Shown: in pieces, positions 10,453 to 61,100 of the stretch
Position numbering within the stretch: the first letter of the stretch is position 1
Layout of the letters: each line of letters opens with the position of its first letter
From: Glaucostegus cemiculus
Taxonomy: Eukaryota
NCBI GenBank assembly: GCA_976551045.1
Contig: CDPCPM010000107.1
Location: 4,898,001 to 4,962,000, forward strand
DNA length: 64,000 nucleotides
Direction: 5' to 3'
Translations under genes and position numbers: made by a program
Notes under the pieces: model-generated
What the model saw: only the letters and a program-made list of their open reading frames with translations
What the model was told of the DNA's origin: nothing
The model's database searches: none

Positions 10453-10454
10453 TT

Positions 10455-10792: not shown

Positions 10793-12159
10793 TTTTCCAG
10801 TGGAGATTTTTCCTGCTTCTAATGAGGACGTAATTAATACAAGCCGGCCTTATTTGTTTAATGTTTCAGCCTAGGAAACGAGAGGACTGAAGGACAGAAA
10901 CCATAACTTTGCTGTTGACCCCCTCAAACTCCAGGGGACTCTCTCCAAGTCCTCTTACTGATCTCCCACCGAACAATGCCACCGCTCAGCCATCATTGTC
11001 ACCGAGTGTCAGCATTTAGTATAATTGTACGGGGTGCGTACACTGCCGCATCTTTGTTCCGATAACCCTGCCAGGTCACGCTGTTTGCCGAGCTACAGAG
11101 GATTTGTTGACAAGTTCTACTTGAGCAAATTGTGTTTAGACAACAGTATATTCCATTCAGGTCGGCCGCACCGACTCGGCCAAGGTCAGTTTTTTTATTC
11201 TGTTGAAATCATAAAATGACACTTGAGATAAACAGAGTGTTTACTCTTTCCGTGTGAGCTGAAGCTGATATGTAAATTTATCCTTATTCTTTCGTCAAAT
11301 TTGCATTCGCCCTCTTAATCAAACATTGCGCGGCTCCAAATCAAACAACTTTTAATGACGGCCACCCAATTACGACCTGCCTGTCGTATCAGGAGAGGGA
11401 AACAGCAATTTAGATTTTAATGAAAAGCGCATGGTGAAGTAGCTATTGTCAGCCTGTTGAGCAATAATTGGATAAACTTTTGGTCGAAATAAATGTGTTT
11501 TGATGCTGTAGTTCCTGCTTGGCGATTACACTGCTCCTCTCCAGTTTGTTGTATTCATTTTATCTGCCTAAAACAGACCTTATTCACCTGCCGTATTCTG
11601 ACGTGACTGAAGCTCCCTCTATTAAACACGCTCCGGTATCTCCAGTCCGTGAAGTATCTGTTAAACTCATCGCCTTTTTAGACATATAGATCTTCAGCGA
11701 AAGCTGCAAAAACGCCTTTTGCAAGATGCCACATTTGCATTTAAATGGTTGTGCTTTTTTTTCCGGGGGGACTCCGTGATCTTGAAAGTAAGTTTCAGAA
11801 GATATACGGCTCTGGCATAATTCCAATGGAAATACCCTTTGCAAATAGACAATGGCGGGTTATAGATCTAATCACGACTCTGATCCCTTTCCCCCATACA
11901 ACACCTTTGCAAATCAGATTCCTCCCGCCCATTTCCATCACTGCTGCCTGGTCCTCCTATTGTTCTAAAGAGCAGCAGCAAATTAGCAGAGACCCGGTCG
12001 CTGTAAAGGAATCCTGAGTCTTGGAAACAGCAATAATAGGGATTGCCAAAATTCAAGAAGCTATACGTAGCAGCGCACCCCAAGTACAGAACCTGTACCA
12101 GGGAGCGGGCGGTGGCTGGAAGGGGGGAAAAGGGGGGGTGGCGGTGGGGAAGAGTTTAA

Positions 12160-12174
12160 TATATATATATATAT
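12160..12174. repeat. (TA)n microsatellite
   Basis: tatatatatatatat, directly after a G-run tract (12122-12150). Confidence 0.85.
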
Positions 12175-13119
12175 TTAATTCTTGGCCTTTTGTTTGCAAC
12201 GCGGTGTCTGGAGAAGCCCGCGTCTTTTTATGCCGCGCTGTTCCTTCTCACGAACAAAGCTATTGAAAAACTTAACAAGTTCAGGGCAAATCAGATGACA
12301 AGGCAAACAAAACAATGGAAGGGTGGCGGAGGGAGAGGGGCACTGTCTTTCTTTAGAAGCATCTCTGATTCTTCTTCCCGTAAGGAATGGAAAATGAGAG
12401 TGTTGACTCGAACCTTCGCTAGGGAACCTAAGTCCCGGCACCTGGAATGTAAAGCACATTCATGAATTGTCCCAGCACTGCTAACATAACTCATCCCGCA
12501 GATACGCGGAGTGCATCAATTCCCTCACTTTAGAACGTGTCGTGCATTTTCTCTATTAAATAAAAAGCACAGCAGAATTTCCCGTCCTTAGCGCAGCAGT
12601 CAAATGGCTATCTAATTGTGCCAGAACCGCGACAGAATGGATATCTGCTCTGTCCAGCGGCCTGCGAGTGCTCTCTCCCATTCACAGAGGCAAAGGATGC
12701 CACACACATTCTGTTTGTTCAACATGAGCAAACAGATTGTAAACTTGCTGATAATTTTTGCACTGACAATGTCATTTACAGCTGTCAGCCTTTTGTCTGG
12801 CGTGTTTGCTTTATTCAAATATGAACCGAGCGGACCTCCCTTCCGCCGCTTTCTTCTGCATTAAATTCACATCAATTCACTTCCATTCGGTCTTATCTGC
12901 AATTCATTGGAGGCCAATCATCTGGTTGAATGCTTTGGTGTTGCCATGGTGGTGGAGGGTCCAGTCAGAGGCCTCTGTGAGCTTGAGGTCTGGGCTGGGT
13001 TAACTATCCATTTTCTTCTGACACAACCCCCACTCCAGCAGGAGACTACTATGCAACTCATATATATAAAACTCATATGGCAAGTGTATCATCCCAATGG
13101 CAATGGCGCTATGTACAAA

Positions 13120-13245
13120 AATGTGCTGACACAATTGAATGTAGTGACCAAATTACACTAAGAATGTAAAGAGCGTTGCACCGTGTTTATTCTTTTGTAT
13201 ATATGTTTTATTATGAATAAAATTTGTTTCTGAAATTTGAAAAAT
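13120..13245 (+). mobile_element. Tx1-like LINE 3' tail
   Basis: 'gaccaaattacactaagaatgtaaag...tgaataaa' matches the reverse complement of 17760-17795 and 38320-38410. Confidence 0.55.
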
Positions 13246-13946
13246 GTAAACGTTTTGCATCCCTTTACTACAGAAAGTCTAGCAGGCCAATGAGTTTTGA
13301 CCTGACACGCTGCTTTTCTCCGAATCCGGTGAGTGTGTTAGGTTTTTTTTTATCTTACACTGTTTGTCCTCGCACTTGTCCCGGGGTAACCAATGCTCCC
13401 AGCTGGCCTATTTTCCCCCAGCTGCTTCCCGGGGAGTTCAGAAACGTTTCGGAAGCATCTTCCCATTGTGCGGAAGGTCAGGGCAAACAGCAATTCAATG
13501 AACGCGTCCACTTGTTAGAAGCGCAGGTGTCGTTCAGTTGGTACTTGTGTGCCACTGAACAGGCGCAGGAGCCCACCGGCCCCGATTTTAACCTGGATCG
13601 GGACAAGTGCTTTATCTGTTCCCAGGCTTCACCTGCAAGCGTAGGGTTGGGTACTGGAGCGCCCACAGCAGGGACGCTCTCCGTCCCTGTGAGTATTGAG
13701 CGTACTCGGGACGCGCACGTCCCTGTCATTAAAGTGCCCTTCTGAAAGTGGTCAGAAGTAAATGCCGGTGCACATTTTCGTCTGCGCTCATTTGGCCTCC
13801 CCGCTCACTGTAAGGACCGGAGTCACTGACAGTTGGGGTCAAAGGCAGAGTAGCGAGCACATGGGTACTTCAGGAATGAAGTTTATTTGGGAGGGTTTCA
13901 GGTTGAGGTGGGTGGCGGGGGCCAGGGGGAGTTCGAATGAGATTCA

Positions 13947-14325
13947 CGATGATGCTGGAGGAACTCAGCAGGCCAGGCAGCATCCGTTGAGTAAAGCAGG
14001 CGGCCAACGTTTCAGGTCAGGACCCTTCTTCAGGACTGAAGATAGGAAAAGGGGAAGCCCAATATATAGGAGGGAAAAGCGGAGCAGTGATAGGCGGACA
14101 AAAGAGGGGAGGTGGGCTGGGCACAAGGTGGTGATAGGTAGATGCAGGTAAGAGATGGTGGTAGGCAGGTGTAGGGGAGGAGGGGAGAACAGATCCACGG
14201 GCAGGGTGGAATGGGTCAAAGTAAGTAATCCCCCCAAACCCCCTACCCCCCAACCATGCCTCTTCCTTTCTTCCCTTTGCAAGCCTCTTTTTTTCTGCCT
14301 TGTTTCCTCCTTACCTTTGACCCAT
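13947..14325 (-). mobile_element. Young Penelope pLTR with an internally inverted segment
   Basis: 13947-14225 is highly similar to 33068-33270 and to the reverse complement of 43960-44232. 14221-14325 is the adjacent pLTR segment in the opposite orientation. Confidence 0.85.
14001..14038 (-). ncRNA. Minimal type I hammerhead ribozyme motif (Penelope-associated)
   Basis: CAGTC-CTGAAGA-A-GGGTC-CT-GACCT-GAAA-CG-TT-GGCCG: intact CUGANGA/GAAA core, stem II, palindromic stem III; stem I imperfect. Confidence 0.6.
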
Positions 14326-14329
14326 CTTT

Positions 14330-15600
14330 CCCGTAATGTAGTGACCAAAATTCTTTGCATTATCAAGGGATAGTCTAACAAGTGTTGCAAACTGTACAAG
14401 TATAACTTTCCCTTAATGTGGTGACCACAATTGTATGCATTCTCAAGCTATGGTCTAACAAGGAATGATAAATGTTCAAGTATGACTTTCATGCTGTATA
14501 ATCTATATATCAGATGACAAAAGAAAGCAGCTTATTTGTTTGCTCAACAACTTTATTGACCTGCCCTCTGACTTATGGGTGGTATGGTTCTATAGTGGTT
14601 AAGTTCCTGAACTAACCAATGACTTGGGCAATTGATCAGGAGACATCAGGACAAATTCTGCCTTGGCAGCTGGGAAAGTTAAAGTAAATAAATCTGGATT
14701 TTTTTTTAACAAAATAGCTTGTACTGTAACTATGCAACTGGTGAATTGTCATTAAAAAAAATCCCACCTTGTTCACTAATGTCATACAGAGTAACAATCT
14801 GCTGTCATACACAGTCTGCCCTATATGTGACTCCAGTTGCACTTATGTGTTTGACTGTATTTGCCTCCTGAGTTTTGAGAAATTAAGGATACTGATGGTT
14901 GATCTTCTGGCAATACCCACATCCCACCAAGAAATGAGAAAACATACACAAATGTCCCTCTGTTCCTACTCGTATCCTGCCTTCTGTGTACTTCTTTATC
15001 TTGTTGCACCTCTCCAAATGCAATACTTTGGGTCTTCTGCCCAGCTGACTGGATATTATATATCTGTCTCCAGTCTAAACCTTCCTTCCTCTCTGTCAAC
15101 CACACAGTCAACTTTTGGCTCATCTTCAAATGTCTCTATCATGACACACATATCAAGTCAAAGTCCTTAATATACAGTATTAACAGCTAGTGGTGAACTC
15201 AGTGTAATCCTACTGTTACCAGCCATTAACCACCACTCTTTGCCTCCTGCCATTTTTGCACCCAATTTGCTGCTCTCCCTTAATTCCATGGGTTTTCACA
15301 TTATGACCATCAAAATCTTCTTAAGAGCCACATAAATTACCTCAACATGCCACACTCATTGACCCTCCTTTTCACTTCCTCAAAAAATTAAGTTGTTCAT
15401 TAATCATCCATGTTAAGCAATCTCTTCTCCTTTATGATTTTGTTTAACACCTACTACTCTGGCCAAATTTCAGTCTCAATGTTTCCACCAATATTTCAAT
15501 TGTCCCTTTGTTAAACACTGGAGATATCAAACCACTTTACATCCATGAAGTTTCAGAAATTTGGAAGTCAGTTTGCAAGGTGCCACAAGTAGTAATTTGA
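14330..15600 (-). mobile_element. Old CR1 remnants interrupted by a tRNA-SINE (about 14578-14870)
   Basis: Degenerate 'gtggtgaccacaattgtatgcattctcaag' and 'cacagtcaacttttggctcatcttcaaat' (RT FADD region). SINE head 'tatagtggttaag'. Confidence 0.55.
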
Positions 15601-17659: not shown

Positions 17660-17725
17660 CAAGCAGCATCTGTAAAAAACCAAGGTGACTTTTCAGGTGG
17701 ATGACCTTTCATCAGAACTGGGAAG
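17660..17725 (-). mobile_element. Penelope pLTR fragment with hammerhead core
   Basis: Minus strand: CAGTT-CTGATGA-A-AGGT-CATCC-ACCT-GAAA-AGTC. Confidence 0.55.
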
Positions 17726-17754
17726 CAAGTCTGTGTTAGAATGAAGTCAAGTGC

Positions 17755-18629: not shown

Positions 18630-18750
18630 CAAAGCAAAATACTGCAGATGCTTGAAATCCAAAATTTAAAAAAAACACTCAGGAGTTCAGATAGCATCCA
18701 CAGAAAGAGAAACAAAATTAACATTTCAGGTCAAAGGCCTTTCAACTGTG
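18630..18750 (-). mobile_element. Penelope pLTR fragment
   Basis: 'aaatactgcagatgct...agcatccacagaaagagaaac' block. Confidence 0.55.
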
Positions 18751-19879: not shown

Positions 19880-22220
19880 CACAAGATCACAAGACAAGGG
19901 AGCAGAAGTAGGCCATTCAGCCCTTCGAGTCTGCTCCATGAGAAAAGAAAAGATATATCTATCCCCAATTTCCAGCCTTATCCCCATCTCCCTTGATACC
20001 TTGATTAATTAGGTACCTATCCAACTCCCCTTTAAATGCCCCCACTGACTGAGCCTCTACAGCTGTATGTGGCAGAGAATTCCACAATTCCACCACCCTC
20101 TGACTAAAGTAATTTCTCCTCATCTCTGTTTTAAACTGATTCCCTCTGATTCTAAGTCTGTGCCCTCTAGTCTTGGACTCACCCACCAAGGGAAACAGCC
20201 TTTCCACATCTACTCTATCCATTCCTTTCAACATTCTAAATACTTCTATGAGGTCCCCCCTCATTCTTCTGTACTCCAATGAGTACAGTCCAAGAGCCGA
20301 TAAACGCTCGTCATAGGTCAGCCCTTTCATACCAGGAATCATCCTTGTAAACCTCCTCTGGACCCTCTCCAACATCAGCACATCCCTTCTAAGGTGCGGG
20401 GCCCAAAACTGCACACAGTATTCCAAATGAGGACGTACCAGTGCTCCATAGAGCCTCATCATCACTTCCCTACTTCTATACACTATACCTCGCGAAATGA
20501 ACGCCAACATAGCATTCGCTTTCTTTATCACCGATCCGACGTGGTGGTTGACTTTTAGGGTGTCCTGCACGAGTACCCCCAAGTCCCTTTGTACTTCCGT
20601 ACTTCCAATTTTCTCCCCATCTAGATAATAATCTGCCCGTTCATTTCTTTTGCCAAAGTGTACTACAGCACATTTGTCAACATTGAATTTCATCTGCCAT
20701 TTCTTTGCCCATTCACTTAACCTATCCAAGTCTCTCTGCAGCCTTCCTGCCTCTTCTATACTCCCTGCTCCATCGCCAATCTTGGTGTCATCTGCAAACT
20801 TAGCTACAAAACCATTTACTCCATCATCCAAATCGTTAATATATAAAGTGAAAAGTAGCGGGCCCAACACCGACCCTTGCGGGACACCACTAGTAACTGG
20901 TCACCATCCAGAACAGGATCCCTTTATTCCTACCCGTTGCTTTCTGCCTACCAGCCAATGCTCGACCCATTTTAATATCTTTCCTGTAATTCCATGCGTA
21001 CTCATCTTATTAATCAACCTCTGATGCGGCACCTTGTCGAAGGCCTTTTGAAAGTCTAAATACACAACGTCCACTGCCTCTCCCTTATCCACCCTACCTG
21101 TGATTTCCTCAAAAAACTCCAATAGGTTGGTCAGGCAAGATCTTCCCTTTACGAAACCATGCTGGCTTGGACCTATCCTGTCTTGAAACACCAGGTATTC
21201 CGTAACCTCATCCTTGAGGATCGATTCCAGTATCTTTCCCACTACTGACGTCAAACTAATTGGTCTGTAATTACCTTTATGCTGCCTCCCACCTTTCTTA
21301 TACAGTGGAACTACGTTCGCTACTCTCCAGTCCTCTGGAACCATGCCGGAGTCCATTGACTCTTGGAAAATAATCACTAATGCCTCTACAATCTCTAAAG
21401 CCACCTCCTTCAGAAACCGAGGGTGCACCTCATCCGGTCCGGGTGACTTATCTGTCTTTAATCCACTTAGCTTCCTTAGCACCTTCTCCCTAGTAATCTC
21501 AACTGTACTCAGTTCAATCCCCTGGAACCCCTGTCTATCTGGTATATTGCTGGTATCTTCCACAGTGAAGACCGATGCAAAATACTTATTTAGTTCTTCT
21601 GCCATCTCTGTATCTTCTATTATAATATCTCCCACACCATTTTCAATTGGTCCTATATCAACCCTTGTCTCTCTTTTACACCTCATATATTTAAAAAAAC
21701 TTTTAGTATCTGTTTGAATGTTATCTGCCAATTTCCTTTCGTAATTCATCTTTTCTTTCCTAATGACCTTCTTAGCTTCTTTCTGCAGGTTTTTAAATGT
21801 TTCCCAATCCTCAGTTTCCCCACTTATTTTTGCTACCTTGTAGGCTCTCCCTTTTGCTCTTATCTTAGCCTTAACCTCTTTCGTTACCCACATATGTGCC
21901 TTTTTTCCATTCAGAACTTTCTTTTTTCTTGGAACATACCTATCCTGCACCTTCCTTATTTCTTGCAAAAACTTTATCCACTTCTGCTCCACCGTCCCAC
22001 CTGCTAGCTTACTCTTCCAATCGATTTGAGACAGTTCCTCTCTCATACTGCTGTAGTTTCCCTTGTTCCATTGCCATATATATGCACCAGTTATGAGCCT
22101 CTCCTTTTCAAATTTGACTCCAAACTCAATCATATTGTGATCACTGGTTCCTAATGGTCCCATTATTTTTAGCTCCCTAATCAGCTCTGGTTCATTGCAC
22201 AGTACCCAATCCAAAATGGC
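19880..22220 (-). mobile_element. Young 5'-truncated CR1 LINE (ORF2 endonuclease tail plus RT) with one premature stop
   Basis: ORFs 20901-22214 and 19959-20870 are in the same frame, separated by TGA at 20901-20903. Motifs: SDHN, KSPGPD, NYRPISLTS, YLDFQKAFDKV, GVPQGSVLGP, FADD. 3' (cacaagat/c) repeat. Confidence 0.95.
19959..22214 (-). pseudogene. CR1 ORF2 reverse transcriptase, truncated and nonsense-disrupted
   Basis: About 750 codons with a single stop (SGW*PVTSG). Most of the APE domain is missing. Confidence 0.9.
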
Positions 22221-24084
22221 TAATTATTTACAATAATTAAATGTAATTATTGTAAATCAATCAAAAACATAAATAGTAAAAAAAACCAAATGAATTAACC
22301 CAAATTTTGAATGGAGTTCAAATGATTGCATATACACTAGCCATGGCTGGCTTAAACTGAGGGACCAGATGTGAAGTGCCTCCTGCCTCATGGCTCAGCT
22401 CAGTTCAGAACTGCAATGTCCAGTGTCAGAGGAGGAGATCAGCTGCACTGCCACTCAACCACCACTGCATTTCCCACTTGTATATCACACTGGGCAGACA
22501 TGGAAATTGAAGACACACTGAACATTGAAGAGTGGATGAGTAGCAGTTCCATATAGAACACTCACCCATATCAATGCTCACTCTGGCCCATTGAGTCTCT
22601 CATGCCCTCTGGATGTCCTAAAGAATTTTAAAGGCAATAAGTAAATTTGTTTCAAGTGTATAAGTGATGTAAGAATATATGCTTAAGCCTTTCATCCACT
22701 TAGTTCTTCCTTCCTTTTCTGAAATATTAACCCTGTTTCTCTCCCCACAGACACCGTCTTAACCGAGAAGTACTTTGAGAATGTGCTGCTTATGTCTCAA
22801 GATAAATAGGGTAGTTTCATGAGTTATATGTAGCAGCTTTTATTTAGGTTGAGATTAGATTCAAGGAGAGCGAAATCCATTTGCTGCCATTCACAATCAA
22901 ATAAGCCTATCATTTCATATCAACAGTGGAACTGCAAGCCTGGTTTCCCTGGATCGGCAATTCTACCACCAGGACACAGGAGTTACACCTTGGTCTCAGT
23001 ATGTATCCTAGATACCATTGTAAAAGTTTCTCATTGACCTCAAACTTGGTTCTGTAAAGATAGAACCAGTAAGTCCAGTCAGCTAGAAAACGAAGGAGTG
23101 ATGGATCTTTGGAAACCAGCAGCTGAACTGAGGTGGACAAATATTTGAAAGTTTGAATGCCTTTGCAACACTGCTAATGGACCAAAAGGAGAAAAGAGTG
23201 TTTCCTCCGCCAATTCTGAAAATCAAGGGCACCCAAGCTATTTACCATCTGCATTCTCCCTCTACCACAGCATCAGACTCCATCGGAGCAAAGACCCCAC
23301 ACAATGCCTGATATTAGAGAGCAGGCAATTCCTTGAAGTCTGGGTTGGATCCCCTCCTCTCCCCCCTCCCCCTACCCCATGTTGGAGTGAATCAGATCCA
23401 TCTGGTTCTTTTCCCTGAGGGAAGTCATTATTCTTAGTGTAAGAAGACCACATTGTAAATGAGGGTGAAGATTGAAAGAAAATCCTTATTTATATGATCT
23501 TACTCATTGTATTATTTCTTATCCATTACCAATTTCACCCAGAAAGCCCACACTATAGATAGTGTGAACAATGAAAATTATACATACTAAAGGCTGCCTT
23601 TCTGAGGTTGAGTCAGAGAGGAAAGCATTCATTAACAATCAAATATACTGCCCCTGGGAGCATAATACAAAGCCCATACTGTATTCCATTCCCTGGCACC
23701 TCCTGTAAGCACAGAGAAGCTGACATAATCTTGCTCTTGCATAACTAGATTATTTTAATTGTTCATTTCACATGTTTTGCTTCATCACTCATCAGAGATT
23801 CTTGGTGATTTACACAGAATAGAGAGATTTGTCAGTTAATCTGACATTGGGCCAAAATGAAGGTGGATGTTTTGTTCTGTGAATGTGCAGGCAAATACCT
23901 AGTTTTAGTTGGGTTGGAATTTGGTGCACTTCTGACTGGTAGACATGACACTTCATAAGGAAATTAGAGGAAGAAATTATGTCTGCACATGTCTGATATG
24001 TACTATTAATGCCATCCACCTCACAACAAACAAATGCTAGTCCTGTCACATAATGTATGCTGAGGACGCCACCAAAGTTGGTCA

Positions 24085-25194: not shown

Positions 25195-25320
25195 TTGAAA
25201 AAAAAAATGCAGATGCTGGAAACCTGAAATAAAAACAGAAAACAGGCAGTATCTGTGGAAAGAGAAACAGTTAATGCTTCAGGTTAAAGATCTGAGTGGT
25301 TCCAGCATTTTCTATTTCAA
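25195..25320. mobile_element. Fold-back Penelope pLTR remnant
   Basis: 'tgaaataaaaacagaaaa' with the inverted 'tccagcattttctatttca'. Confidence 0.55.
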
Positions 25321-26189
25321 TCCAAAGGTGAAATTGTTATATGAGTATAAGGAGCATGAACCCTTTCCCAGAGCTTCTATATTCTTGTGAAAATAGTAAT
25401 AACAAACAAAATCTTAAAATATTTGTTTTAAGATTCTAACCTCTTTCAGTTTTAGATCCTTGGACATTGGACCCTCTCTTGAAATTCATCTCAAGCACAC
25501 TATTAATATTGCTTGGGTGAATTTCCCACATTATATCCCTAGAACTCTAATCTACTATGCCTTTCACCTGGGAATATGGAAACAGACTGTCAAAGCAGAA
25601 ATGAAGTTGATGTACTTTATTTGGATGTAAACACAAGACACTTAATTATGAAAGCAGAAAGTGCAAGAGTATTCTGTGGTGCAGATTCTTGTCCTTTATC
25701 TCTGAACCCTGAACTTGAACAGAAAATCCTTTACAAAAAATAAAAATCAGGAAAGATGTGGGATACAATGCAACATAAGCATAATCTATTTTACACTGTT
25801 GTATGAAGTTAATTCATATACCCTGGTCTTGCATCCCAAGGCCAAGGTTTACTTTGGTTTAAATGCAAAATGGTTAATTCTGAGTTTAAAGCCAGGTCTA
25901 ATTTGATTTTTAAGTATTGTTAGGAAACACTTCTACATATAAAGGGTCTGGGTCAATTGTTCATTTTAAATCTGAGATCTTTTGTTAATCAAGGACTTTA
26001 AGGGATTTAGAGTTAAGTTAGAGGTAGCCATGATCTCCTTGAAAGGCAGGAAAGGCTCTTGTTCAGATGCTTCTTGTTCACAGTCATTTGAGCAATATGA
26101 TTCAGAACTCAGAAGATTATTTAATAAGTTCTTTTTAATCAATATGACAAAAGTTTTATGGGAATGCATCAACAATTTCTTCACTAATG

Positions 26190-26490
26190 TAAACAGAAAA
26201 TGCAAGGAAAGCTCAGCAGGTCAGTCAGCATCTGTGGAAAGAGAAAGTTAGCATTTCAGCTCTGAAACCCTTTATCAGAACTGGGAAAGAAATAGTCTAG
26301 GAAGTTAGAGAAACAAGTTAGGGAAACGATTTATTTCTCTCTTTCCCAGTTCTGAGGAAAGTCTCTCAGATCTGAAATGTTAACTGTTTCTCTCTCGACA
26401 GATGCTGCCTGACCTGCTGAGAGTTTCCAGCATTTTCTGTTTTTATTTCAGATCTCCAGCACCTGCAGTATTTTATTTTATTTTTTTGCT
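26190..26490. mobile_element. Inverted pair of Penelope pLTR fragments, each with a hammerhead motif
   Basis: 26190-26290 (minus) mirrors 26340-26450 (plus). The plus copy reads CAGTT-CTGAGGA...GAAA-TGTT-AACTG at 26347-26386. Confidence 0.75.
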
Positions 26491-27902: not shown

Positions 27903-28190
27903 TGAGACACAAGAGAGATTGCAAGTGTTGGCAATCTGGAGCAACACACACTAAATGCTGGAGGAACTCAGCAGGTCAAGCAGCATCTATAGTGGGAGGT
28001 GAACAGTCGACATTTTGCGCCAAGACCCTTCATCAGGACTGGAAAGGAAGAGGGCAGACGCCAGAATAAAAGAGTAAGGAGAGAGGGAGGAGCACGAGCT
28101 GGCAGGTGAGTCCAGGTGAGGGGGGGAAGGTAGGTAGATGGGGGAGGGGGGGCATGAAAAGGAATGATGTGAAAAGGTGAGAGAATGATA
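27903..28190 (-). mobile_element. Penelope pLTR fragment
   Basis: Similar to 8667-8900. Hammerhead reads CAGTC-CTGATGA...AAAA-TGTC-GACTG with GAAA decayed. Confidence 0.8.
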
Positions 28191-29129
28191 TGTCTTGTGC
28201 CAATTAAAATCTTTTAACCTTAACAAAAAACCTGGCAGGGCCATCAACAGGTTGCCAATTTTAAAAATAAGGTTCAACATTAAGCTGAAGAAACTCCTGC
28301 ATGACCCATTCATCATGGAGCTGTTTCAACTCTTGCTTTGCATGAGCAGCAGTGCCGTGGGGTGGTTGTCTGGTACTGATTACCAGAATGGGAAGTGCCC
28401 TTAGCTCAGATCCTGCTGAATTGTATTGTCAGTAAGGCATTCAGTGCAAACCCAAAATGCAAGAAACTGGATCACAAAGTTCAGTGTGATATCTGCACCA
28501 ATTCTGGTCCTTAACACAGCTTGAGTTATCAGTTCACAAGTAGCAGCCACCTTCCTGTAACTTGTTCCAAGTGGCTACTCTTTGCAAAGTTAGCGAGTGT
28601 TACCAAAAGCATCGGATTTGAGGCCTAAATTTTGTTCTTTTATAACGTTCACACAGGCCTACTGACTAACGTGTTACTGGTTAGGAATCACCAGTGGTTT
28701 AACTTCACCTCCTTAATCCTCCCTTGCCCAGGGCGCTTGAGATTAATTGCAGGAGCTTTAGTATCTATCTTACCATTTATCATCGGTGTCAAAACTACAC
28801 AGGCGTGGTGGAAAATGTTAGCATGTGACCAGCTGCCATGCAAATGTTTGCTAAATGTCCATTTCTTTGTTTGGCAAGAAAAGCAACAAATCTAACTCAT
28901 GTCTGAATGAGGCAGACTTCAAATGATACCTGTCGATACACATTTCAAGCAGTAGACTTGAAAGACGGTCAATTCTCAGTCAAAGTACCACCATCTGGCT
29001 AACTAGTTTCTGTAAAGCATATGTGCATTATAAATGTATCCTCATTACAACTCTGTTCATGAAAAACATAGGACTTCAGCATTGGGAATGAATAGCATGC
29101 AGAAATGAGACTGGATCCACTTCAGTATT

Positions 29130-31519: not shown

Positions 31520-33066
31520 CATAGAACAATACAGCACAAAACAGGCCCTTCGGCCCACCAAGTTGTGCCGTCCTTCAAACGTCACACAATCTAACTCTTT
31601 CCTCCCACATATCCTACTACTCCACATTCTTCCATGTGCCTATCTAACAATCTCTTGAACCTGTCCAACATATCTACCTCTACTACCACCCCAGGCAGTG
31701 CATTCCATGCGCCAACCACTCTCTGGGTGAAAAACTTCCCTCTGACATCTCCCCTGAACTTTCCACCCAATATCTTAAAGCCATGCCCTCTCGTCTTGAG
31801 CATCTGTACTCTGGGAAAGAGGTGCTGGCTGTCAACTCTATCTATTCCTCTCAATATCTTATACACCTCTATCAAGTCCCCTCTCATCCTCCTCCTCTCC
31901 AACGAGTAGAGCCCTAGCACCTTAAGCCTCTCCTCATATTCCATACCCTCTAATCCAGGCATCATCCCGGTAAATCGCCTCTGTACCCTCTCCAACACTT
32001 CCACATCCTTCCTATAATGCGGCGACCAGACTGAACACAATATTCTAAGTGCGGTCTAACTAGAGTTTTGTAAAGAGGCATCATCACGTCTCAGCTCTTG
32101 AACTCAATCCCACGATTTATAAAAGCTAACGTCCCATAAGCCCTCTTAACTGCCCTATCCACCTGTGAGGCAACTTTGAGTGAACTGTGGATATGAACCC
32201 CCAGATCCCTCTGCTCTTCCACACTGCCAAGTACCTTGCCATCTACCTCATACTCTGCCCTGGAGTTCGTCCTACCAAGGTGCACCACCTCACACTTCTC
32301 CGGATTAAACTCCATCTGCCACCTGTCTGCCCAGCTCTGCATCCTGTCAATATCCCTCTGTAAGCTCCAACAGTCCTCCACACTATCCACCACACCGCCA
32401 ATCTTGGTGTCATCCGCAAACTTACCAACCCATCCTTCCACTCCTTCATTAAGTCATCTATAAATATAACAAAGAGAAGAGGTCCCAGAACCAATCCCTG
32501 CGGGACACCACTAGTCACAACCCTCCAATCCGAGGGCACTCCCTCCACCACAACCCTCTGCTTTCTACAGGCAAGCCAATTCCTGAGCCACACAGCCAAT
32601 CTCCCCTGGATACCTTGACCTCTGACCTTCTGAAGAAGCCTACCATGAGGAACCTTATCAAACGCCTTACTAAAATCCATATAGACCACATCCACCGCAC
32701 TGCCCTCATCAATCTTCCTCGTCACCTCCTCAAAGAATTCTGTCAGGCTCGTGAGGCAAGATCTTCCCTTCACAAAGCCATGCTGACTGTCACTAATCAG
32801 TCCATGATTCTCAAGGTGTTCATAGATCCTATCCCTCAGAATCCTTTCTAACAGCTTACCCACCACAGACATGAGACTCACCAGTCTGTAATTTCCCAGA
32901 CTATCCACCAGTCTGTAATTTCCCGGACTATCCCTACTACCTTTCTTAAACAAGGGAACAACATCCGCTACCTGCCAATCCTCCGGCACCATCCCCGTGG
33001 ACAACGAGGACTCAAATTCCTCACCAGCAGATCAACAATCTCCTCCCTCGCCTCTCAAAGCAGCCT
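31520..33066 (-). mobile_element. 5'-truncated CR1 LINE (RT region; frameshifts and stop)
   Basis: ORFs 32243-33004, 32091-32441 and 31591-32040 carry [29 protein letters not shown]; 3' end 'catagaacaatacagcac'. Confidence 0.93.
32881..32933. repeat. 27-bp tandem duplication inside CR1 ORF2
   Basis: ccagtctgtaatttccc(a/g)gactatcc twice, giving [18 protein letters not shown]. Confidence 0.9.
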
Positions 33067-33575
33067 GGACCCTTCTTTAGGACTGAAGATAGGAAAAGGG
33101 GAAGCCCAATATATAGGAGGGAAAAGCAGAGTAGTGATAGGTGGACAAGAGAGGGGAGGAGGGGTGGGCACAGGGTGGTGATAGGTAGATGCAGGAAAGA
33201 GATAGTTGTAGGCAGGTGCAGGGGAGGAAGGGAGAGCAGATCCACGGGGGGATGGGTCAAAGGTAAGGTGGAATAAAGGGCAGAAAAAAGAAACATTGGC
33301 TGGGAAAGGGAAGAAAAGGCATGGTTGGGGTGGGGTGGGGGGGGGGTGATGGTTAAGGAGATTACTTAAAGTGAGAGAATTCAATGTTCATGCTGTTAGG
33401 TTGCAAGGTTCCAAGATGGAAAATGAGGTGTTGATCCTCCAGTTTGCATTTGGACTTCTCCTGGCAATGAAGGAGGTCGAGGACTGACATCTCTGTGATG
33501 GAGAGGGAGGGGGAGGTGAAGTGACCAGCAACGAGGAGATGCAGATTGCAGTTACGGATGGAGTGCGGGTGTTCT
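33067..33575 (-). mobile_element. Penelope-like 3' end (GIY-YIG C-terminus plus pLTR)
   Basis: Minus strand reads ...MSVLDLLHCQEKSKCKLEDQHLIFHLGTLQPNSMNIEFSHFK*; the pLTR matches the 13947 and 43915 copies. Confidence 0.85.
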
Positions 33576-33689
33576 GTAAAGACTCAAGCGCAGTGTCTGA
33601 ATTCCTGCACTCTGGGCAAGCCTTCAATGCAGACAATACAGACGCACTCTACTTTAGCGAGCTGAAGGGAAGGTAGGTGAAGGCCTGAA

Positions 33690-33815
33690 AAGCAAAAAAT
33701 AAAATTGCAGATGCTGCAAATCTGAAATATAAAGGGAAAATGCTGCAGATCAGGCAATGTCTCTGGAGAGAGAAACAGAGTTGATGTGTCAGGTAAATGC
33801 CCTTTTATCGGAACC
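33690..33815 (-). mobile_element. Penelope pLTR fragment
   Basis: 'tgcagatgctgcaaatctgaaat...gagagaaacagagtt' block. Confidence 0.6.
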
Positions 33816-34347
33816 CTTTGAGGATGGTTTTTGGGAGACCTCCCTAATGTAGCAGTGAGATGTGGCAGAGATCAGCAGTGGCAGCAGTAGATCCCGACAC
33901 TAGGAAGCTAATAGTGACCAGGACTTTGATCTCCATGAGCAATGTAGTCAAAGCACATATGCAAGACCGTATTTGAAGTTATAGCAGGTCACGCCTCTTT
34001 GTGAGAACAACAAGTAACGTTTAAGTGCTTGCTCTTTAAATAGATCCCAGGGGAAATTGGTTTAATAAAATCTAGTGGGTTTCACCTGACTAGTGTAGTT
34101 GAAAGTCTCACTGGAGGAGAATTTTGTGTGTTACACTACTGTTGTCTTCATTTACAGAGAGTTCTACAGCAGAAAACTGTGCCCACTGAGACACTAAGAC
34201 ACCAAGGAATGTTTGCAGGATTTGTTAAGCCACCTTTCAAAAGCACAATGTTGTCTTTTCCTGAACTGAGTGAATGAATTTCTCACCTTGCCCTTATTTG
34301 AAATAGTCCAAAGGATCTTTTTTTACAATTTCCTGAGAGACCATTGG

Positions 34348-34595
34348 TTTTATTTATTTATTTTACAGCTTGGTAACAGGCCCTTTCGGCCCAACGAGTC
34401 CGCGCCGCCCATTTTAAACCCCCAAATTAACCTATCCGTGCATCTTTAGAACGTGGGAGGAAACCGGAGCACCCGGAGGAAACCCACGCAGACACGGGAG
34501 AACGTACAAACTCCTTACAGTCAGCAACGGGAATCGAACCCCGATCGCTGGTGCTGTAACAGCGTTGCGTTAACCGCTATACTATCGTGCCCGGC
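34348..34595 (-). mobile_element. Young HE1-like V-SINE (CR1-type tail)
   Basis: B box ggttcgattcc, V-domain, tail 'gggccgaaagggcctgttacc'; near-identical to 45755-45990. Confidence 0.92.
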
Positions 34596-43914: not shown

Positions 43915-44232
43915 TCACCTTGCTTCTTCTCTTCTTCCCTTTCCCAGCCTATTCTACCCCTCTCCTTACCTTTGACCCATCCCTGGTGGATCTGCTCTCC
44001 CCTCCTCCCCCACACCTGCCTATCACTGTCTCTTACCTGCATCTACCTATCACCACCTCGTGCCCACCCCGCCTCCCCTCTTTTGTCCACCTATCACTGC
44101 TCTGCTTTTCCCTCCCATATATTGGGCTTCCCCTTTTCCTATCTTCGGTCCTGGAAGGGTCCTGACCTGAAACGTTAACCACCTGCTTTTCTCCACAGAT
44201 GCTGCCTGGCCTGCTGAGTTCCTCCAGCATCA
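43915..44232 (+). mobile_element. Young Penelope pLTR
   Basis: Reverse complement of 13947-14220. Hammerhead core has a 2-nt deletion (CTG--GA-AGGGTCCTGACCT-GAAACGTT). Confidence 0.85.
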
Positions 44233-44244
44233 TATTGGTAAATA

Positions 44245-44430: not shown

Positions 44431-44580
44431 TGGAGAGTGAAAAAAATAATATAAAGGCTAAAGAGGAAAATCAAATGACTAAATCATAGGGAGAAACTTT
44501 AACAAGTGCTCCTTGAAGGTCCTTGCACACTAAAAGCCACAAGCTTAGCTGGGGTATCCCAACCTGATGGAGCTGTGCTC

Positions 44581-44900
44581 TGTATCCTCACCCAGTATTA
44601 GAGAGAACCAGGCCTGGCTCTAAATCCTCACCCAGTACTGGAGAGGACCAGGCTGGGCCCCGCATCCTCACCCAGTATTGGAGAGAACCAGCCTGTGCTC
44701 TAAATCCTCACCCAGTATTAGAGAGAACCAGGCCTGGCTCTAAATTCTCACCCAGTATTAGAGAGAACCAGGCCTGGCTCTAAATCCTCACCCAGTACTG
44801 GAGAGGACCAGGCTGGGCCCTGCATCCTCACCCAGTATTGGAGAGAACCAGTCTGTGCTCTAAATTCTCACCCAGTATGAGAGATAGCCAGGCTATCACT
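44581..44900. repeat. 40-bp minisatellite, 8 units
   Basis: Unit taaatcctcacccagtattagagagaaccaggcctggctc at exact 40-bp spacing. Confidence 0.95.
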
Positions 44901-45754
44901 CAGCCCATTCCATATTTTTAGCAAGACCATGGAAATCCCGGACATACTTTCCTGTAAGCAACTGGACTTGAAGATTCCCTTCACTGAGTACAGGATGTGC
45001 CATAACTTCAATGACGGGTTCCTTTATATAACAGTGGCTTGGCTGGTGTATTACATCCTTCAATAATAATAACTACTACTGGGAAAGTCGCTGATAGATA
45101 TTTCAATCTTCTCAGTTTGACCTTATGTGACCTCTATTAATTGGTTTATAGATCCGCGAGAACCACAATGGCCAGGGGAGTTGACCCTGTCCTTCAGCAG
45201 CACAGTTAGCAGGCTTGTTGTATACAGTGAAACCACAGAGCTCTTTAAACTCAGGGCTGTCATCAATCTGTTTTTCTTTATGGGCTGTTGTATATATTTA
45301 CTTTACTGCACAACTCAGTTAGCTATTTAGTTTTCTTTGATTTGTTTGTGTAATCAGAGTGTGGTTCATTTTCTGCAGCACTCATATCACTTCTTATGCA
45401 ACCGGCATTAACCTGAGTGCAGGAATTGGGGGTGGGTGGGGGTGGGGTGGCGGTTTGTGGGTGCAAGTCACTATGAACAGAGCTTTGCACAATCCCTAAC
45501 GCTGGTTGCTTCTTTAATATTAGGTCAGAACGGACTGTGTTTGGCTCTTCAGAACAAAGTTTCAGATATTTCTAGGAAAGCCTATTCTTGGCATATCAGA
45601 AAAAGCATATGCCTGTGGGAATCCGAGGATAAAGACACCTCCGAAGTAAATCTGGCTGGTTCAATTTCAGTGCATATAAAACCCAAGCATTTTGATATTC
45701 AGCCAATATTCATAATATGCGTAATACAAGAAATCCTGTGTGCAAAGTCATTAC

Positions 45755-45990
45755 AATAGCGTAGCGGTTAGCGCGACGCTGTTACAGCGCCAGCGATCGG
45801 GGTTCGATTCCCGTCACTGACTGTAAGGAGTTTGTACGTTCTCCCGTGTCTGCGTGGGTTTCCTCCGGGTGCTCCGGTTTCCTCCCACATTCTAAAGACG
45901 TACGGGTAGGGGGTTTAAAATGGGCGGCGCGGACTCGTTGGGCCGGAAGGGGCCGTTACCACGCTGTAAATAAAATTTAATTTAATAAAA
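45755..45990 (+). mobile_element. Very young HE1-like V-SINE (CR1-type tail)
   Basis: A box tagcgtagcggttag, B box ggttcgattcc, V-domain, CpGs largely retained, AT-rich tail. Confidence 0.93.
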
Positions 45991-47204
45991 AAGCTAGTCA
46001 ACAACTTATCGAAAAGACTAATGGAATGCAGGGTGTAGAATCCTAATAATTTGCATTATCGTTTCTTTTTCCTGATTTTTCTCATGGATTAGTTATATGT
46101 AACAAAATATTTAATTTAAAAAAGAATCTGTGGTTAGGCTTTAATGCAAGGGAGAGCTGCAGCAGTTCTGGAAGGTAGCCTACATCCACTTTCTCAAGGG
46201 TAAGTAGGGAGGGGCACTAAATGCTGGCCTTGACAGGAATACTCTTTGAAAAACTACAGCCACATTTTGCTTAATCTTATGTGTAAAAGGTATCAGAAAC
46301 CTACAGGCCATCCAGTTGGCTCCTGATTTATGGTGCAAAAGATGAGAAAGGGAAGATAAAAGAAAATGAACTTAACTAAAAGCCTCGTTGTTAACTGAAT
46401 TAAAGATAGCTGTGCTCAGTCAGTCAGTCTTCATGGAATGAGTGAACAGGAGATTGAGCTTTTATCTTTGCAAAATAGGGGCTTCTAAGAACCTATACAC
46501 AGGAAATAAATAAAAACAGGAGTATGCTATATCGTCCCTTGAGTTTGTTCTCTGAAAATGAACTGTGAATATCTCCAGGTGTGGAAATGGCAAGGCAACC
46601 AGCAACGGAGGGTATGTGCATAATTTTGGTTGCTCTTCCTTTTCATCAGTCTTTTTAGTTACTTTTCTCTTTTTCTCCCATTCTCCTTTCTCCCCCCCCC
46701 ACTTTTATTTCTCTTCTTATATGTATCCTAACTTTGAATTCATGCCTTTTATCCTCTCCACCATCCCCTTCCTCCCCACTTTTCAGTGCTCCCTGTGAAA
46801 TACCCAATCTATACACCACATTATTTTGGGATGGTTGCCCTGTCCATGGCTGAATCAGCTCCTTCTGTTCATTTAAATATCCATCTCAGCAATGATGTTC
46901 TCAGTGAAATTGTTCTTTGCAGTGGTGCTTAGAAAGAACCAACAGGGCATTCCCTCAGTATGAAATGTACTCCGTCTAACTACAAATCTGAAAAAATCAC
47001 CACACAGTATGTTTTCTTTAAGTGATTGTGGAAAATCATGGGGAAAGTGTCAAACTCACCAAATTCATCTGCTGGTGGGAGATGGGAAATGGGAAGGTGG
47101 GATTAGACTGAATAGCTCTTTTTCAGACAGTTTGGATACGATGAACCAAATGACCTTATTCTGTAATTGTAGCAATTTAAATGGTTCTTTGGCCAGTGTC
47201 AACC

Positions 47205-47300
47205 CATTTCTGAAGAGTCTTCAATCTAAAACATTAACTCAGTTTCTCTTTCCACAAGTGCTGCCTGATCTGAGTGTTTCCAGCATTCTCTGTTTTTATT
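47205..47300 (+). mobile_element. Penelope pLTR fragment
   Basis: 'tgctgcctgatctgagtgtttccagcattctctgtttt'. Confidence 0.55.
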
Positions 47301-48204: not shown

Positions 48205-48380
48205 TGTGCATTTATATCACAATGTTCATGATCACAGGACCTTCCAGTGTTGTACATCATTCATTTGGTCAATGTTGTTATGTTAGAAGTGCAGCTGCAA
48301 TTTATGCACACCAAGGTCCCACAAACAAAGAACAGGTAATCCGTGCTTAGGGTGGTGTTGAGTGAGCAGTAAGGTTGCCC
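48205..48380 (-). mobile_element. Deu-domain SINE-like fragment
   Basis: 'tgcatttatatcac...caggac...aaggtcccacaaac' with an L2-type tail; similar to 49120-49430. Confidence 0.5.
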
Positions 48381-48445
48381 ATGAAAAACACAATGATGCT
48401 GAAGGAACTCAGCAGGCCAGGCAGCATCCATGAAGAAAAGCAGGC

Positions 48446-48481
48446 AGTCAACGTTTCAAGTCAGGACTCTTCTTCAGGACT
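48446..48481 (-). ncRNA. Minimal type I hammerhead ribozyme motif within a Penelope remnant (48395-48510)
   Basis: AGTC-CTGAAGA-A-GAGTC-CT-GACTT-GAAA-CG-TT-GACT: intact core, 4-bp stem I, stem II, palindromic stem III. Confidence 0.65.
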
Positions 48482-48714
48482 CCAGCATCTGCAGTCCTTT
48501 GTTTCTCAAAGTTGCCCAAGTCATCTGGGACAGCTCCACACTGAAGAACCATCTATGCCTACAAAAAGCAATGACTCCATTTCAAAATTAATTGACAGTA
48601 AAGCATTTTTGGATAACCTGCCATACAAAATGATTCTAAATTCTAAGTTGATAAATTCTAAGTTTATATATGCTTCTAGAAATATGTATGTATTTGCTGC
48701 ATTTATTTTCCCAT

Positions 48715-49430: not shown

Positions 49431-50045
49431 ATGACTGGATTGGAGGGTATGAGCTATAAAGGAGAAGTTGGACAACCTTGGGTTGTTTTCTCTGGATGTC
49501 AGAGGCTGAGGGGAGACCTGATATTTATAAAATTATGAGAGGCGTAGGTAGGGTAGACAGAATCCTTCTCCCAGGGTAGACATGTCAGGCACTAGAAAAC
49601 ATATTTTTAAGGTAAGGGGGGAAAGTTTAAAAGAGATGTGCAGGACAAGTTTTTTTAAAATACAGGGTGCCTGGAACAGACTACCAGGGGTCATGATGGA
49701 AGCAGATATGACAGTGGTGTTTCAGGGACTTTTAGACAGACACACGGAGACATAGGGAATGGAGAGATATCATCCATGTGCAGGCAGAAGAGATTTAGTT
49801 TAATATGGTGACTCAAGAGATTCCAGCATCTGCAGAATCTTGAGCAACAGACACACAAAGTGCTGGAGGATTGCAGCAGATCAGGCAGCATCTATGAAGG
49901 GAAGTAAGCAGTCAACCTTTTGGGTCGAGGCCCTTCATCAGGTTCTGTTGCCTGACCTGCTGAGTTCTTCCAGCACTTTGTGTGCGTCGTTTAATAATGG
50001 CATTGTGTTTGATGCAGACATCATGTGCTATACTGTTCTATGTCA
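49430..50045 (+). mobile_element. CR1 3' fragment interrupted by a fold-back Penelope remnant (about 49810-49988)
   Basis: CR1 motif RLRGDL. Insert has inverted arms at 49851-49890 and 49947-49987. Confidence 0.75.
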
Positions 50046-51070: not shown

Positions 51071-51880
51071 ACAGTACAGGCAGGAGAAGTTCCTTCTGCA
51101 GGATCATTGATTACCTGTAGGAATAAAAGGAAAGTGAGGAGAATAATATCACTACATCCTAAAACCTTTATTTACTTTGTTGCTTCATACCAGTCACCCA
51201 TACAGTTAAGTCACTGTTTTCAATTCTGGTCACCTCTGAAAAAAAATCTCAAAGGCCTTGGTGAGAGCATGGAAGAAATTTACTAGAATTAAACTAGGAT
51301 GAAATATTTAAATTTTGTGAATAGATTAGAAACAGCAGGTCTTCACAGAGAGGCAGGGGGGGGAGAGGTTCAATACATTTGCTTAAAATGAACGCTTTTG
51401 ATGGATTCAATGAGGAGAACTTCTTGCCACTGGTGGGAGGGTTGGTAATCAGAAGACACAGATTTACGATAATGGTCTAAAGTGACATGAGAAGATTTTT
51501 TCGTGGCGGATCAAGAAATAGGGTCACCACCGCTTTCTCATGCAGCATTAGGGATGAGCAATAAATGCTGGCCTTAACAAAAATGATCACAAACAAAATT
51601 AAATAAAAAGGAATGTTATGATCAGGAGAGCACTGCCTGAAAGGATGGTGGAAGCAGGTTCCACTAGTCAGTGGATTAAGTTCAGTGAGCGTATTGTCCT
51701 TCTAAAAGAACCACTAAGAAGTGAAATTCAGAAGTTCCCTGATTTGAAACCTAATTAACAGAGATTAAGTTAATGTAGACAAGGTGGAAGAGTGAATTAA
51801 ACAGATGTCCCATTCTTGGTTCAGCAGTCTAGGTTAAAAGGCATTGGGTGTTGTGCCAAAGCAGAATGGGTACAGGTGGC

Positions 51881-52279
51881 TATCACAATGTTGATTGAAG
51901 AGCAAGCTCAGAGAACCCAAATGTGGCACACTGGTACAAGACTGGAGTCAGGATACTTCCTCAGGACCAAACACAGGCAGCAACTGGAAGGAAATCTTGC
52001 CTCGGAGATCTGAGTAGTAATCCCAACACAAAATGAATCTTCAAGCAGGAATAGAGAACTAGGACTGCTCTGGAGTAAACTTCAACCAGGAGCCAAAGTA
52101 TACATGAAGGTTGACCAATCCTCTGGCAACTAGTGCTAGAGAAACCCAGGTACTTATGCTAGGCCCCTGATGGGGCTCAGGTGTGTGTCATTATGCAATC
52201 AGTCCAGCATGGAATCCATGTGCTGTACAACAAGGCATCTAAGGAACCAAATCAAGGGCCAGTACTCAGAATCATGACA
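51881..52279 (-). mobile_element. Solo LTR, copy A
   Basis: Minus strand begins TGTCATGA and ends TGTGATA. 5-bp TSD gtggc at 51876-51880 and 52280-52284. Homologous to 56256-56647. Confidence 0.85.
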
Positions 52280-56255: not shown

Positions 56256-56647
56256 TGTCATGAGTACTGGCCCTTGATTTGACTCCTTAGATGCCTTGTT
56301 GTACAGCACATGGATTCCATGCTGGACTGATTGCATAATGACACACACCTGAGCCCCATCAGGGGCCTAGCATAAGTACCTGGGTTTCTCTAGCACTAGT
56401 TGCCAGAGGATTGGTCAACCTTGAAGATTCAGTTTGGTTCCTAGCTGCTTAATGTGGTCTACTCCAGAGCAGTCCTCTGTTCTCTAGTCTTGCTTGAAGA
56501 TTCAATTTGTGTTGGGATCTCTGAGGCAAGATTTTCTTCCAGTTGCTGCCTGTGTTTGGTCCTGAGGAAATATCCTGACTCCAGGCTTGTACCAGTGTGC
56601 TGCATTTGGGTTCTCTGTGAGCTTGCTCTTCAATCAACATTGTGACA
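56256..56647 (+). mobile_element. Solo LTR, copy B
   Basis: TGTCA...TGACA termini; 5-bp TSD gttgt at 56251-56255 and 56648-56652. Confidence 0.88.
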
Positions 56648-56764
56648 GTTGTGGATAACTGGGACCAAGGCATTTCCACCCCAGCACCCCCATTATCTAT
56701 TAAGCTTGGTATTTTATTGATCAGCATATCTAACATGTATTTAACACTTCTGTGTGAAGGAATC

Positions 56765-60459: not shown

Positions 60460-61100
60460 TAAATGAAATAAAAACAGCAAGACAGGTATCATCCATGGAG
60501 AAAGAAACAGAGGTAATGTTTCAGGTCGATGACTTTTCCTTCGAACTAGCAAAAGTTAAGAATCAGAATTGCAGAAGAGGGAAGGGAAAACAAAGGGAAT
60601 ATCTGTGATTGGATGGAATCAAGATAGATGGGATGGTGCAAAAGATAGTGGTGCCAACTAAGGGCGGGTGGTGAAGACTTGTCAATTGCAGCTGATGTGA
60701 CTGGAGGAGGTGTATACAGAGGGGGAAAGTTCTGCAGATGCTGAAAATCTGAAATAAAATCAGAAAATGCTGGAAATACTCAATAAGTCAGACAGCATCT
60801 ATGGGAAAATAGAAACAGAGTTAATTTTTCAGAAACATTGACTGTTTATCTTTCCACAGAAGCTGCCTGACCTGTTAAGTATGTTCAGCATTTTCTCTTT
60901 TTATTATAAATAGATGAGATCAATGGGGACAAATTGGACAAAATAAAATAAAAGAGCTGGACCTGTGGGGCACAAAACACTGCAGTCACCGGAAATCTGA
61001 AAAACAAGAATCATTGAACCGGTCAGGAGACATCTGTGGAGTGAGAAAACATGGCAAGTTGATAGCTTTCACCAGTGTTGACCAGTTCTGATGCAAATAG
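60460..61100. mobile_element. Cluster of Penelope pLTR fragments including a fold-back (60730-60905)
   Basis: 'aaaatgctggaaatactcaataagtcagacagc' inverted against 'gctgcctgacctgttaagtatgttcagcatttt'. Confidence 0.65.

Follow-up and report, generated by a model that had tools for sequence, protein, structure and literature searches.

Dispersed minimal hammerhead motifs on probable 3' ends of truncated Penelope-like elements in a 64-kb window from Glaucostegus cemiculus

Penelope-like elements (PLEs) carry minimal hammerhead ribozymes; a genome may contain thousands of these as single motifs in truncated copies, with opposite-strand pairs in addition, and in the published alignment both GUU and GUC are frequent triplets (PMC4209133). 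The one-sided tail of PLE insertions has been explained by two start sites of reverse transcription (RT) that delimit the tail on an uncleaved RNA template (PMC11167929), a CX2-5CxxC linker marks the Neptune and Nematis clades (PMC8557442), and retrozymes have been reported in the sole chondrichthyan genome sampled (PMC7229834, bioRxiv 10.64898/2026.07.22.740005).

The window analysed here is the whole 64-kb stretch of contig CDPCPM010000107.1 (assembly GCA_976551045.1), positions 4,898,001 to 4,962,000 of the forward strand. Hammerhead positions (e.g. 15.2/16.2) are given in the customary numbering. Profile searches built from copies in the window returned 22 copies bearing the hammerhead in whole or in part (21 at E<1e-4 and the half copy 33065-33109, E 8e-5, from a separate profile search), 17 on the minus and 5 on the plus strand, which bears out an earlier note that had counted more than a dozen short repeats from the sequence alone; all ten coordinates named there showed the hammerhead layout, 44146-44180 being on the plus strand. 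No copy was found in the reversed window, where the best match had E 6 and E 0.53 in the two profile searches; with the best such match only at E 0.53, the motif family lies far beyond chance. The Rfam search that the earlier note had proposed was unsuccessful, no hammerhead family being among the 13 covariance-model matches to the window up to E 10. Pattern scans for further copies returned 0 in metagenome contigs and 0 in viral contigs, and one pattern match in a bacterial genome was taken as chance. The copies were grouped by the analyst from the alignment into three subfamilies, A (6 copies), B (4) and C (12), and the units to which they belong are listed below with target-site duplications (TSDs) where seen.

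48446-48481, minus strand: hammerhead (B), the best copy, with stem I of 4 bp, intact core, extra A, stem II of 5 bp with G.U at 10.1/11.1, GAAA, CG and UU.
48382-48445, minus strand: conserved downstream segment of the best copy, without the optional tail.
48478-48507, plus strand: inverted piece consisting of the PLE tail (about 30 nt) alone, head-to-head with the front edge of stem I, 4 nt being common with the stem I arm.
48371-48518, unstranded: whole unit of the best copy with 11-bp TSD, 1 mismatch (48371-48381 and 48508-48518).
8666-9311, minus strand: 5'-truncated PLE (A) with GIY-YIG 9057-9308 (in-frame stop), 3' UTR and decayed hammerhead 8731-8766; 9-bp TSD; sits within a SINE.
33065-33640, minus strand: 5'-truncated PLE (B) with GIY-YIG 33365-33640, UTR and the hammerhead's first half, where the copy meets a CR1-like LINE and ends.
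13942-14333, minus strand: PLE 3' end (B) whose 5' end carries about 90 nt of UTR in inverted orientation (14239-14326); hammerhead 14001-14038 (minus) with intact core and a stem I mismatch.
43915-44236, plus strand: PLE 3' end (B); 2 nt of the core are deleted from its hammerhead, 44146-44180.
27905-28197, minus strand: tailed PLE 3' end (A), its hammerhead 28004-28042 carrying G12A; TSD about 16-19 bp, mismatched.
26186-26490, unstranded: head-to-head pair (C), 26250-26285 (minus) without tail and 26347-26386 (plus) with tail; perfect 13-bp TSD (26171, 26491); one long hairpin.
49808-49986, unstranded: short copy plus inverted arm, 49910-49943 (minus) beginning at the core and arm 49947-49985 (plus); TSD about 11-12 bp with one indel.
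60724-60906, unstranded: head-to-head pair (C), joined within the hammerhead at the GAAA box, with the tail on a single arm.
25200-25320, unstranded: short copy (C, minus) beginning in stem II, short inverted arm 25292-25317, degenerate TSD.
3945-4072, minus strand: short decayed copy (A) beginning at the hammerhead front edge.
10340-10454, minus strand: short decayed copy (A) with U4A and A6G.
10676-10792, minus strand: short decayed copy (A), first noticed as 10761-10791, with U4A and without the 5' arm of stem I.
17660-17730, minus strand: copy (C), first noticed as 17686-17720, with all core letters kept and with stem I and stem III broken.
18630-18745, minus strand: short decayed copy (C) with tail.
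22719-22756, plus strand: fragment (C) from the GAAA box onward.
33690-33816, minus strand: short tailed copy (C), decayed, lying upstream of the second GIY-YIG remnant by about 40 nt.
47206-47300, plus strand: short decayed copy (C).
60470-60650, minus strand: decayed copy (C); the sequence upstream is rich in pyrimidines and may be its UTR, this being the sole example.
60972-61078, minus strand: strongly decayed copy (C).

The core consisted of CUGANGA, GAAA and UH with an extra base after A9, as in the minimal type I hammerheads of PLEs, and the 15.2/16.2 pair was palindromic without a stem III loop, reading CG in 4/15 copies and CA, TG or TA, the products of CpG decay, in 9/15. Every core letter was kept in 4 of the 15 full-core copies (48446, 14001, 17686 and 26347), the rest being decayed. 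These four had been called intact, which holds for the core letters, but two of them have broken stems: 17686-17720 has A/G at 15.2/16.2, with loss of the palindrome, and two mismatches in stem I, and 26347-26386 has a distorted stem II and U.G at 15.2/16.2. Stem I of 14001-14038 carries an A.C mismatch, and 48446-48481 has G.U at 10.1/11.1 and a GUU triplet, GUU being regarded as less well cleaved than GUC. The descriptor search that had also been proposed did return hammerheads: a strict descriptor that demanded the exact core, 4 bp or more in each of stems I and II, and pairing at 15.2/16.2 passed solely the copy with C3 at 48477 (48446-48481), relaxation of the stems to 3 bp added the copy with C3 at 14033 (14001-14038), and ten dinucleotide shuffles gave 0 matches at either setting.

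Mean identity was 73% within A, 85% within B and 68% within C, and 56-67% between subfamilies (19 of the 22 copies). In 16 aligned copies the stems had a covariation score of 0.306 against 0.226 +/- 0.027 after shuffling (1/500), a score inflated by kinship among copies and obtained with subfamily C one column out of register in stem II; it exceeded all slid controls (at most 0.186). Doubly changed stem pairs numbered 8 against 5.6 in shuffles (34/500) in the same 16 copies, and the core-adjacent pair was C-G in 7 copies and U-A in 6, which is a single subfamily-level event. The statement that the stems co-vary is therefore upheld by the score above shuffles and the swap between subfamilies, but it is weakened by the doubly changed pairs and by the small number of independent events, and the solid part of the covariation is the difference between subfamilies. 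At that level stems I and II carry the compensatory changes that characterize hammerheads. Odd stem pairs, namely a compensatory A-U in stem II of the 48446 copy and two swapped pairs in the 8731 copy, may point to unseen subfamilies. Separately, the neighbouring short A copies 10394-10450 and 10761-10791 (both minus) have U4A in their cores and two C copies (26250, 33760) have G8A in common; these shared letters may mark further subfamilies, or chance.

Exactly two GIY-YIG remnants were present in the window, 9057-9308 and 33365-33640 (both minus), as had been counted before, so that hammerheads outnumber them 22 to 2. Followed upstream, the 8731 and 33065 copies lead into these remnants across a pyrimidine-rich UTR of about 300 nt without change of strand, the motif lying on the coding strand about 300 nt past the GIY-YIG stop codon and being followed by a 65-105-nt segment. 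In these two copies the hammerhead is sense to the PLE ORF within a terminal repeat, a relation not seen for subfamily C (12 copies), which has no GIY-YIG link in the window and was assigned by motif and tail homology (about 57% to A/B); five long copies are joined by 99-192 nt of upstream homology. The layout and the same-strand continuity with GIY-YIG confirm the view that minimal type I hammerheads sit here on Penelope-like ends. The closest proteins to the remnants were 69-71% identical, with Hypanus sabinus and Mobula hypostoma (rays) as source names, and the remnants were 71% and 45% identical to one relative (P0001). Relatives of the remnants matched the Pfam GIY-YIG family weakly, below the curated cut-off, and a Pfam scan of the window remnants alone gave no GIY-YIG match. 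A CX2-5CxxC linker precedes GIY-YIG in relatives P0001-P0003, P0006, P0013 and P0073; the truncated window remnants begin downstream of its position. RT sequence is present in protein relatives of the remnants and PLE RT is absent from the window; a search for a full-length cartilaginous-fish PLE protein retrieved none, and thus RT and ORF start were not seen. Because the closest relatives carry the linker, a first label 'Poseidon' was replaced after the linker check, and the elements are likely of Neptune type, as judged from a linker of the relatives that Nematis also has. The idea that the tail might be the start of the ORF, which is drawn from analogy, was dropped, the translated tail giving no match and 0/217 proteins examined matching the tail.

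The copies have 3' ends of two classes, one with and one without the tail, at a distance of about 35 nt. Five units are head-to-head (48446, 49910, 25246, 26250/26347 and 60793/60832), and in 5/5 the tail is on a single arm; the 126-bp unit of the best copy consists of the inverted 30-nt tail, the hammerhead from the stem I front edge and 64 nt downstream, within the 11-bp TSD. TSD-like flanks were found in 6/19 units at a null p <0.01, values that are optimistic in that unit boundaries were set by eye, and TSD lengths were 9-19 bp in several units. Inverted 5'-truncated arm, one-sided tail and TSD occur together here as in endonuclease-bearing PLEs, and the layout is explained as a by-product of PLE integration as published. 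Very probably the repeats are 3' ends of 5'-truncated endonuclease-bearing PLEs, likely of Neptune type, and the hammerhead in each is likely an inert passenger, left to decay once inserted.

Some local rearrangements adjoin these units. In the tail of the 49910 copy (49820-49845, minus) the CCAGCATCTGCAG core is flipped between 5-bp inverted repeats, a hairpin-type micro-inversion, and reads of a relative show this tail core in the normal orientation. The 8731 PLE copy splits a SINE at 8386-9395 (minus; head 9312-9395, body 8386-8655) with its 9-bp TSD, and an 80-bp two-copy repeat (14326-14490) adjoins the 5' end of the 14001 unit.

Decay of the dispersed copies was assessed in the core and its surroundings. 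CG at 11.1/12 was kept in 1/9 A/B copies and CG at 15.2/16.2 in 4/15, most others being CA, TG or TA, and CpG observed/expected of the window was 0.24. In the non-CpG core 15/150 cells differed (10%, hand tally) against 38/310 (12%) in the downstream segment (P 0.54). The core decays much as its flanks do, chiefly by CpG loss, and we infer that the dispersed copies are under no selection. Reads and contigs of a related organism (runs X21-X23, X1) were matched at 80% likeness to 8600-9330. In the 8731 copy, its majority letters (among 40 of the 382 letter rows) restored both stems I and II as well as A13, and its loose-end consensus reads contained complete A and B halves of the form stem II-GAAA-CG-UH-stem I, from which it follows that parent elements had proper motifs and that the window copies are their decayed descendants. 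Since the stems were kept by compensatory changes between subfamilies, the hammerhead of the parent element was presumably functional, as a dimer or with protein help. No pile-up of read ends at the cleavage site was seen in the relative's reads, from libraries ill-suited to show one.

Two other parts of the window stand out in CpG content. Positions 11001-14000 are CpG-rich (observed/expected 0.59-0.98 against 0.24 for the window), repeat-poor and without recognizable ORF, with up to 42% of sampled words present in relatives, and are possibly a promoter or conserved regulatory region. Positions 45501-46000 (CpG observed/expected 1.09) lie in a pair of SINEs, 34356-34588 and 45753-45976, that are 88% identical and likely form a young SINE subfamily.

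In the explanation preferred here, which draws on published PLE work, the PLE protein would use uncleaved RNA and start RT downstream of the hammerhead, at either of two internal sites; RT would usually stop early and often fold back, and each insertion would lay down tail and hammerhead first, seldom reaching the endonuclease. Early stopping of RT would yield 22 motifs against 2 GIY-YIG remnants with no separate mobile unit needed. The cleavage site is the starting point of 0/22 copies, in agreement with uncleaved RNA as the RT substrate. Among 15 of the 99 joints in the relative's reads, strand-switch joints cluster at 8707-8766 in DNA and RNA.

The earlier note had proposed a retrozyme-like spread of the motif. 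Accordingly, the repeats might be non-autonomous, retrozyme- or SINE-like mini-elements (hammerhead and tail) that were transcribed and re-inserted themselves, for which the sharp 5' and 3' ends, the TSDs around 120-180-bp units, the report that pLTR sequence suffices for mobilization in trans (PMC3846280) and the derivation of vertebrate retrozymes from pLTRs (bioRxiv 10.64898/2026.07.22.740005) can be cited; we consider it improbable. No tandem array of the unit was present (0/8 tandem rows cover the family), and neighbouring copies are head-to-head or separate, not head-to-tail units with a complete hammerhead each as in retrozymes. Short copies occur in all three subfamilies, mixed with long copies, and form no clade: 6 label changes were counted on the tree against 6.3 in shuffles (281/500), the tree being short, covering 19/22 copies and having 12/16 inner branches open. 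The five fold-back junctions all differ and ends are only partly shared, unlike those of a SINE-like lineage of its own. The 5' arm of stem I is often missing in short copies, and such copies were therefore never working ribozymes, even when new. In the relative's reads the tail downstream of the hammerhead, common to all subfamilies, and not the hammerhead was the most amplified part (X21 depth about 9,100 in the downstream segment against 1,300-2,500 in the hammerhead and 250-330 in most of GIY-YIG), ratios that are rough and an amplification that is inflated, as this segment is common to all subfamilies. Arrays, clades and junctions give the proposal no support, and the repeats likely do not spread on their own.

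The 5' ends are not explained by plain random truncation either. Among the 10 A/B copies with a long reference, 5 have their 5' end 0-10 nt from C3, the other 5 reach out by 99 nt or more, and 0 lie between. Random truncation ends, named beforehand as evidence against an autonomous module, were thus not what was found, the 5' ends clustering at the hammerhead front edge; the related suggestion that short copies share fixed ends and TSDs holds in that ends are non-random and some copies have TSDs. Run-off, or a stop of RT at the hammerhead edge, explains the cluster without an independent element. Tentatively, and with the chances rather against it, the short copies could be a fixed-end product of the autonomous element, namely run-off cDNAs from the internal RT start sites that end at the transcript 5' end, this being the hammerhead front edge, or at a strong RT stop at stem I; such a reading would refine PLE 3'-end insertion as the best explanation and would not replace it. 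Besides the absence of starts between 10 and 99 nt, the relative's depth falls by about 40-60% across the edge (bins 8750-8774 vs 8775-8799), although this step is confounded by subfamily divergence; the strand-switch joint 8712/8766 was found in three RNA runs of one study, although it was absent from the DNA run and may stem from one locus; and an internal promoter has been reported in the Penelope pLTR (PMC2377424). Moreover, the pattern comprises 10 copies only, and four copies begin within the motif. The more specific form, in which the copies of about 100-130 bp are integrated run-off cDNAs with the internal RT start site and the hammerhead front edge as their ends, is somewhat more doubtful still. 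If it were true, ray genomes would hold very many snapshots of a Penelope RT intermediate, from which priming, stopping and fold-back could be mapped. Clustering at the front edge with avoidance of the cleavage site, if genome-wide, would constrain how PLEs finish reverse transcription and the role of the hammerhead.

An acceptor-like sequence in subfamilies A and C raises another reading of the segment after the hammerhead, namely as a 3' splice site with a branch point in the stem I arm, a pyrimidine tract and CAG|ATG, the hammerhead lying inside a PLE intron. Introns are possible beside the hammerhead in PLE pLTRs (PMC4209133), but the AG varies as CACGG, CATGG, CACAG and CATAG, which is the CpG-decay pattern, and no matching spliced form was found among 15 of the 99 joints in the relative's reads; the reading is hard to credit.

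At most two copies, 48446 and 14001, would appear competent. The earlier note had suggested that two copies in one intronic transcript might pair and cleave it; in the form considered here, they would pair within a host pre-mRNA through their ACGU palindromes. These two copies are on the same strand with core and ACGU kept, and the isolated 48-nt motif of 48446 is predicted to fold into stems I and II. They lie 34 kb apart, however, stem I is missing from the predicted minimum-energy fold of 48446 in its 148-nt context (z -1.29), and predicted homodimers lack the ACGU helix. The inverted pair 26250/26347 is predicted to form a single long hairpin (z -14.7) that would mask both motifs. Cleavage by minimal hammerheads is weak also when these are close dimers (PMC4209133), the Anolis hammerhead needs protein (PMC11167929), and 8/9 tested Xenopus dimers were uncleaved (bioRxiv 10.64898/2026.07.22.740005). 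Nor was a host exon found: a Pfam scan of 145/290 window ORFs of at least 62 aa gave no match, the 1 and 24 candidates from crude exon scans included no recognizable exon, and no RNA data set was listed as containing the stretch searched. Cleavage of a host transcript by paired copies is thus unsupported and very improbable indeed.

The copies are skewed to the minus strand (17/22, P 0.017), and a hammerhead-specific origin of this skew was rejected because pieces of CR1-like LINEs are skewed alike (12/16); the skew is weaker in SINEs. Retroelements inside genes are usually biased to the antisense orientation. The skew may reflect a host gene on the plus strand, and if it were such an antisense bias, the majority of copies would lie in antisense to the RNA of the host gene. 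Among other features of the window, a young-looking, CpG-rich CR1-like LINE RT region lies at 19962-22223 (minus; frames of 440 aa and 313 aa with one stop between). An inverted duplication of 390 bp (51880-52268 and 56261-56648) is 89% identical with its parts 4 kb apart and contains a faint hammerhead-like word near 51946-51969 (E 0.3), and a 40-bp minisatellite of about 8 copies lies at 44572-44893.

Compared with the minimal hammerheads of PMC4209133, the family has the same order of CUGANGA, extra base, stem II, GAAA, palindromic pair, UH and short stem I; both comprise several consensus families per genome, and in both, motifs are mostly single on truncated PLEs, with pairs 100-700 bp apart on opposite strands. 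It differs in that stem II, of 5 bp with a 2-3-nt loop, is shorter than most in the published listing, and in that subfamily C has A10.1-U11.1. No cartilaginous-fish term was found in the searchable supplements of that paper, and no earlier report of the shark or ray family was found in the literature covered. With endonuclease-bearing PLEs (Neptune, Penelope/Poseidon, Nematis; PMC8557442, PMC3846280) the copies have in common the strong 5' truncation with an adjacent inverted 5'-truncated copy, the tail of 30-40 bp at one end, TSDs of 8-10 bp or longer, and GIY-YIG at the C terminus with, in the closest relatives here, the CX2-5CxxC linker. The window differs from these elements in containing 3' stumps alone, without RT or a tandem pLTR-ORF-pLTR copy, and the hotspot of 5' ends at the hammerhead front edge is not among the features described in the passages considered.

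As in the Poseidon element of Anolis carolinensis (PAc; PMC11167929), the hammerhead is placed just upstream of two 3'-end classes separated by the tail, and neither set of copies begins at the cleavage site; PAc belongs to another clade, and its ORF starts at stem II. With non-LTR retrozymes (PMC7229834, bioRxiv 10.64898/2026.07.22.740005) the copies share a type I hammerhead, a relation to pLTRs and short non-coding units, but those are head-to-tail tandems with a complete hammerhead per unit and the copies here are single or head-to-head and decayed. Judged by the tandem arrangement that retrozymes have, the family is not one of them; it belongs to the minimal hammerheads of PLEs, a class known since 2014, to which it contributes an example from cartilaginous fish. 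The one useful lead that it offers is mechanistic, in that ends gather at the hammerhead front edge and avoid the cleavage site.
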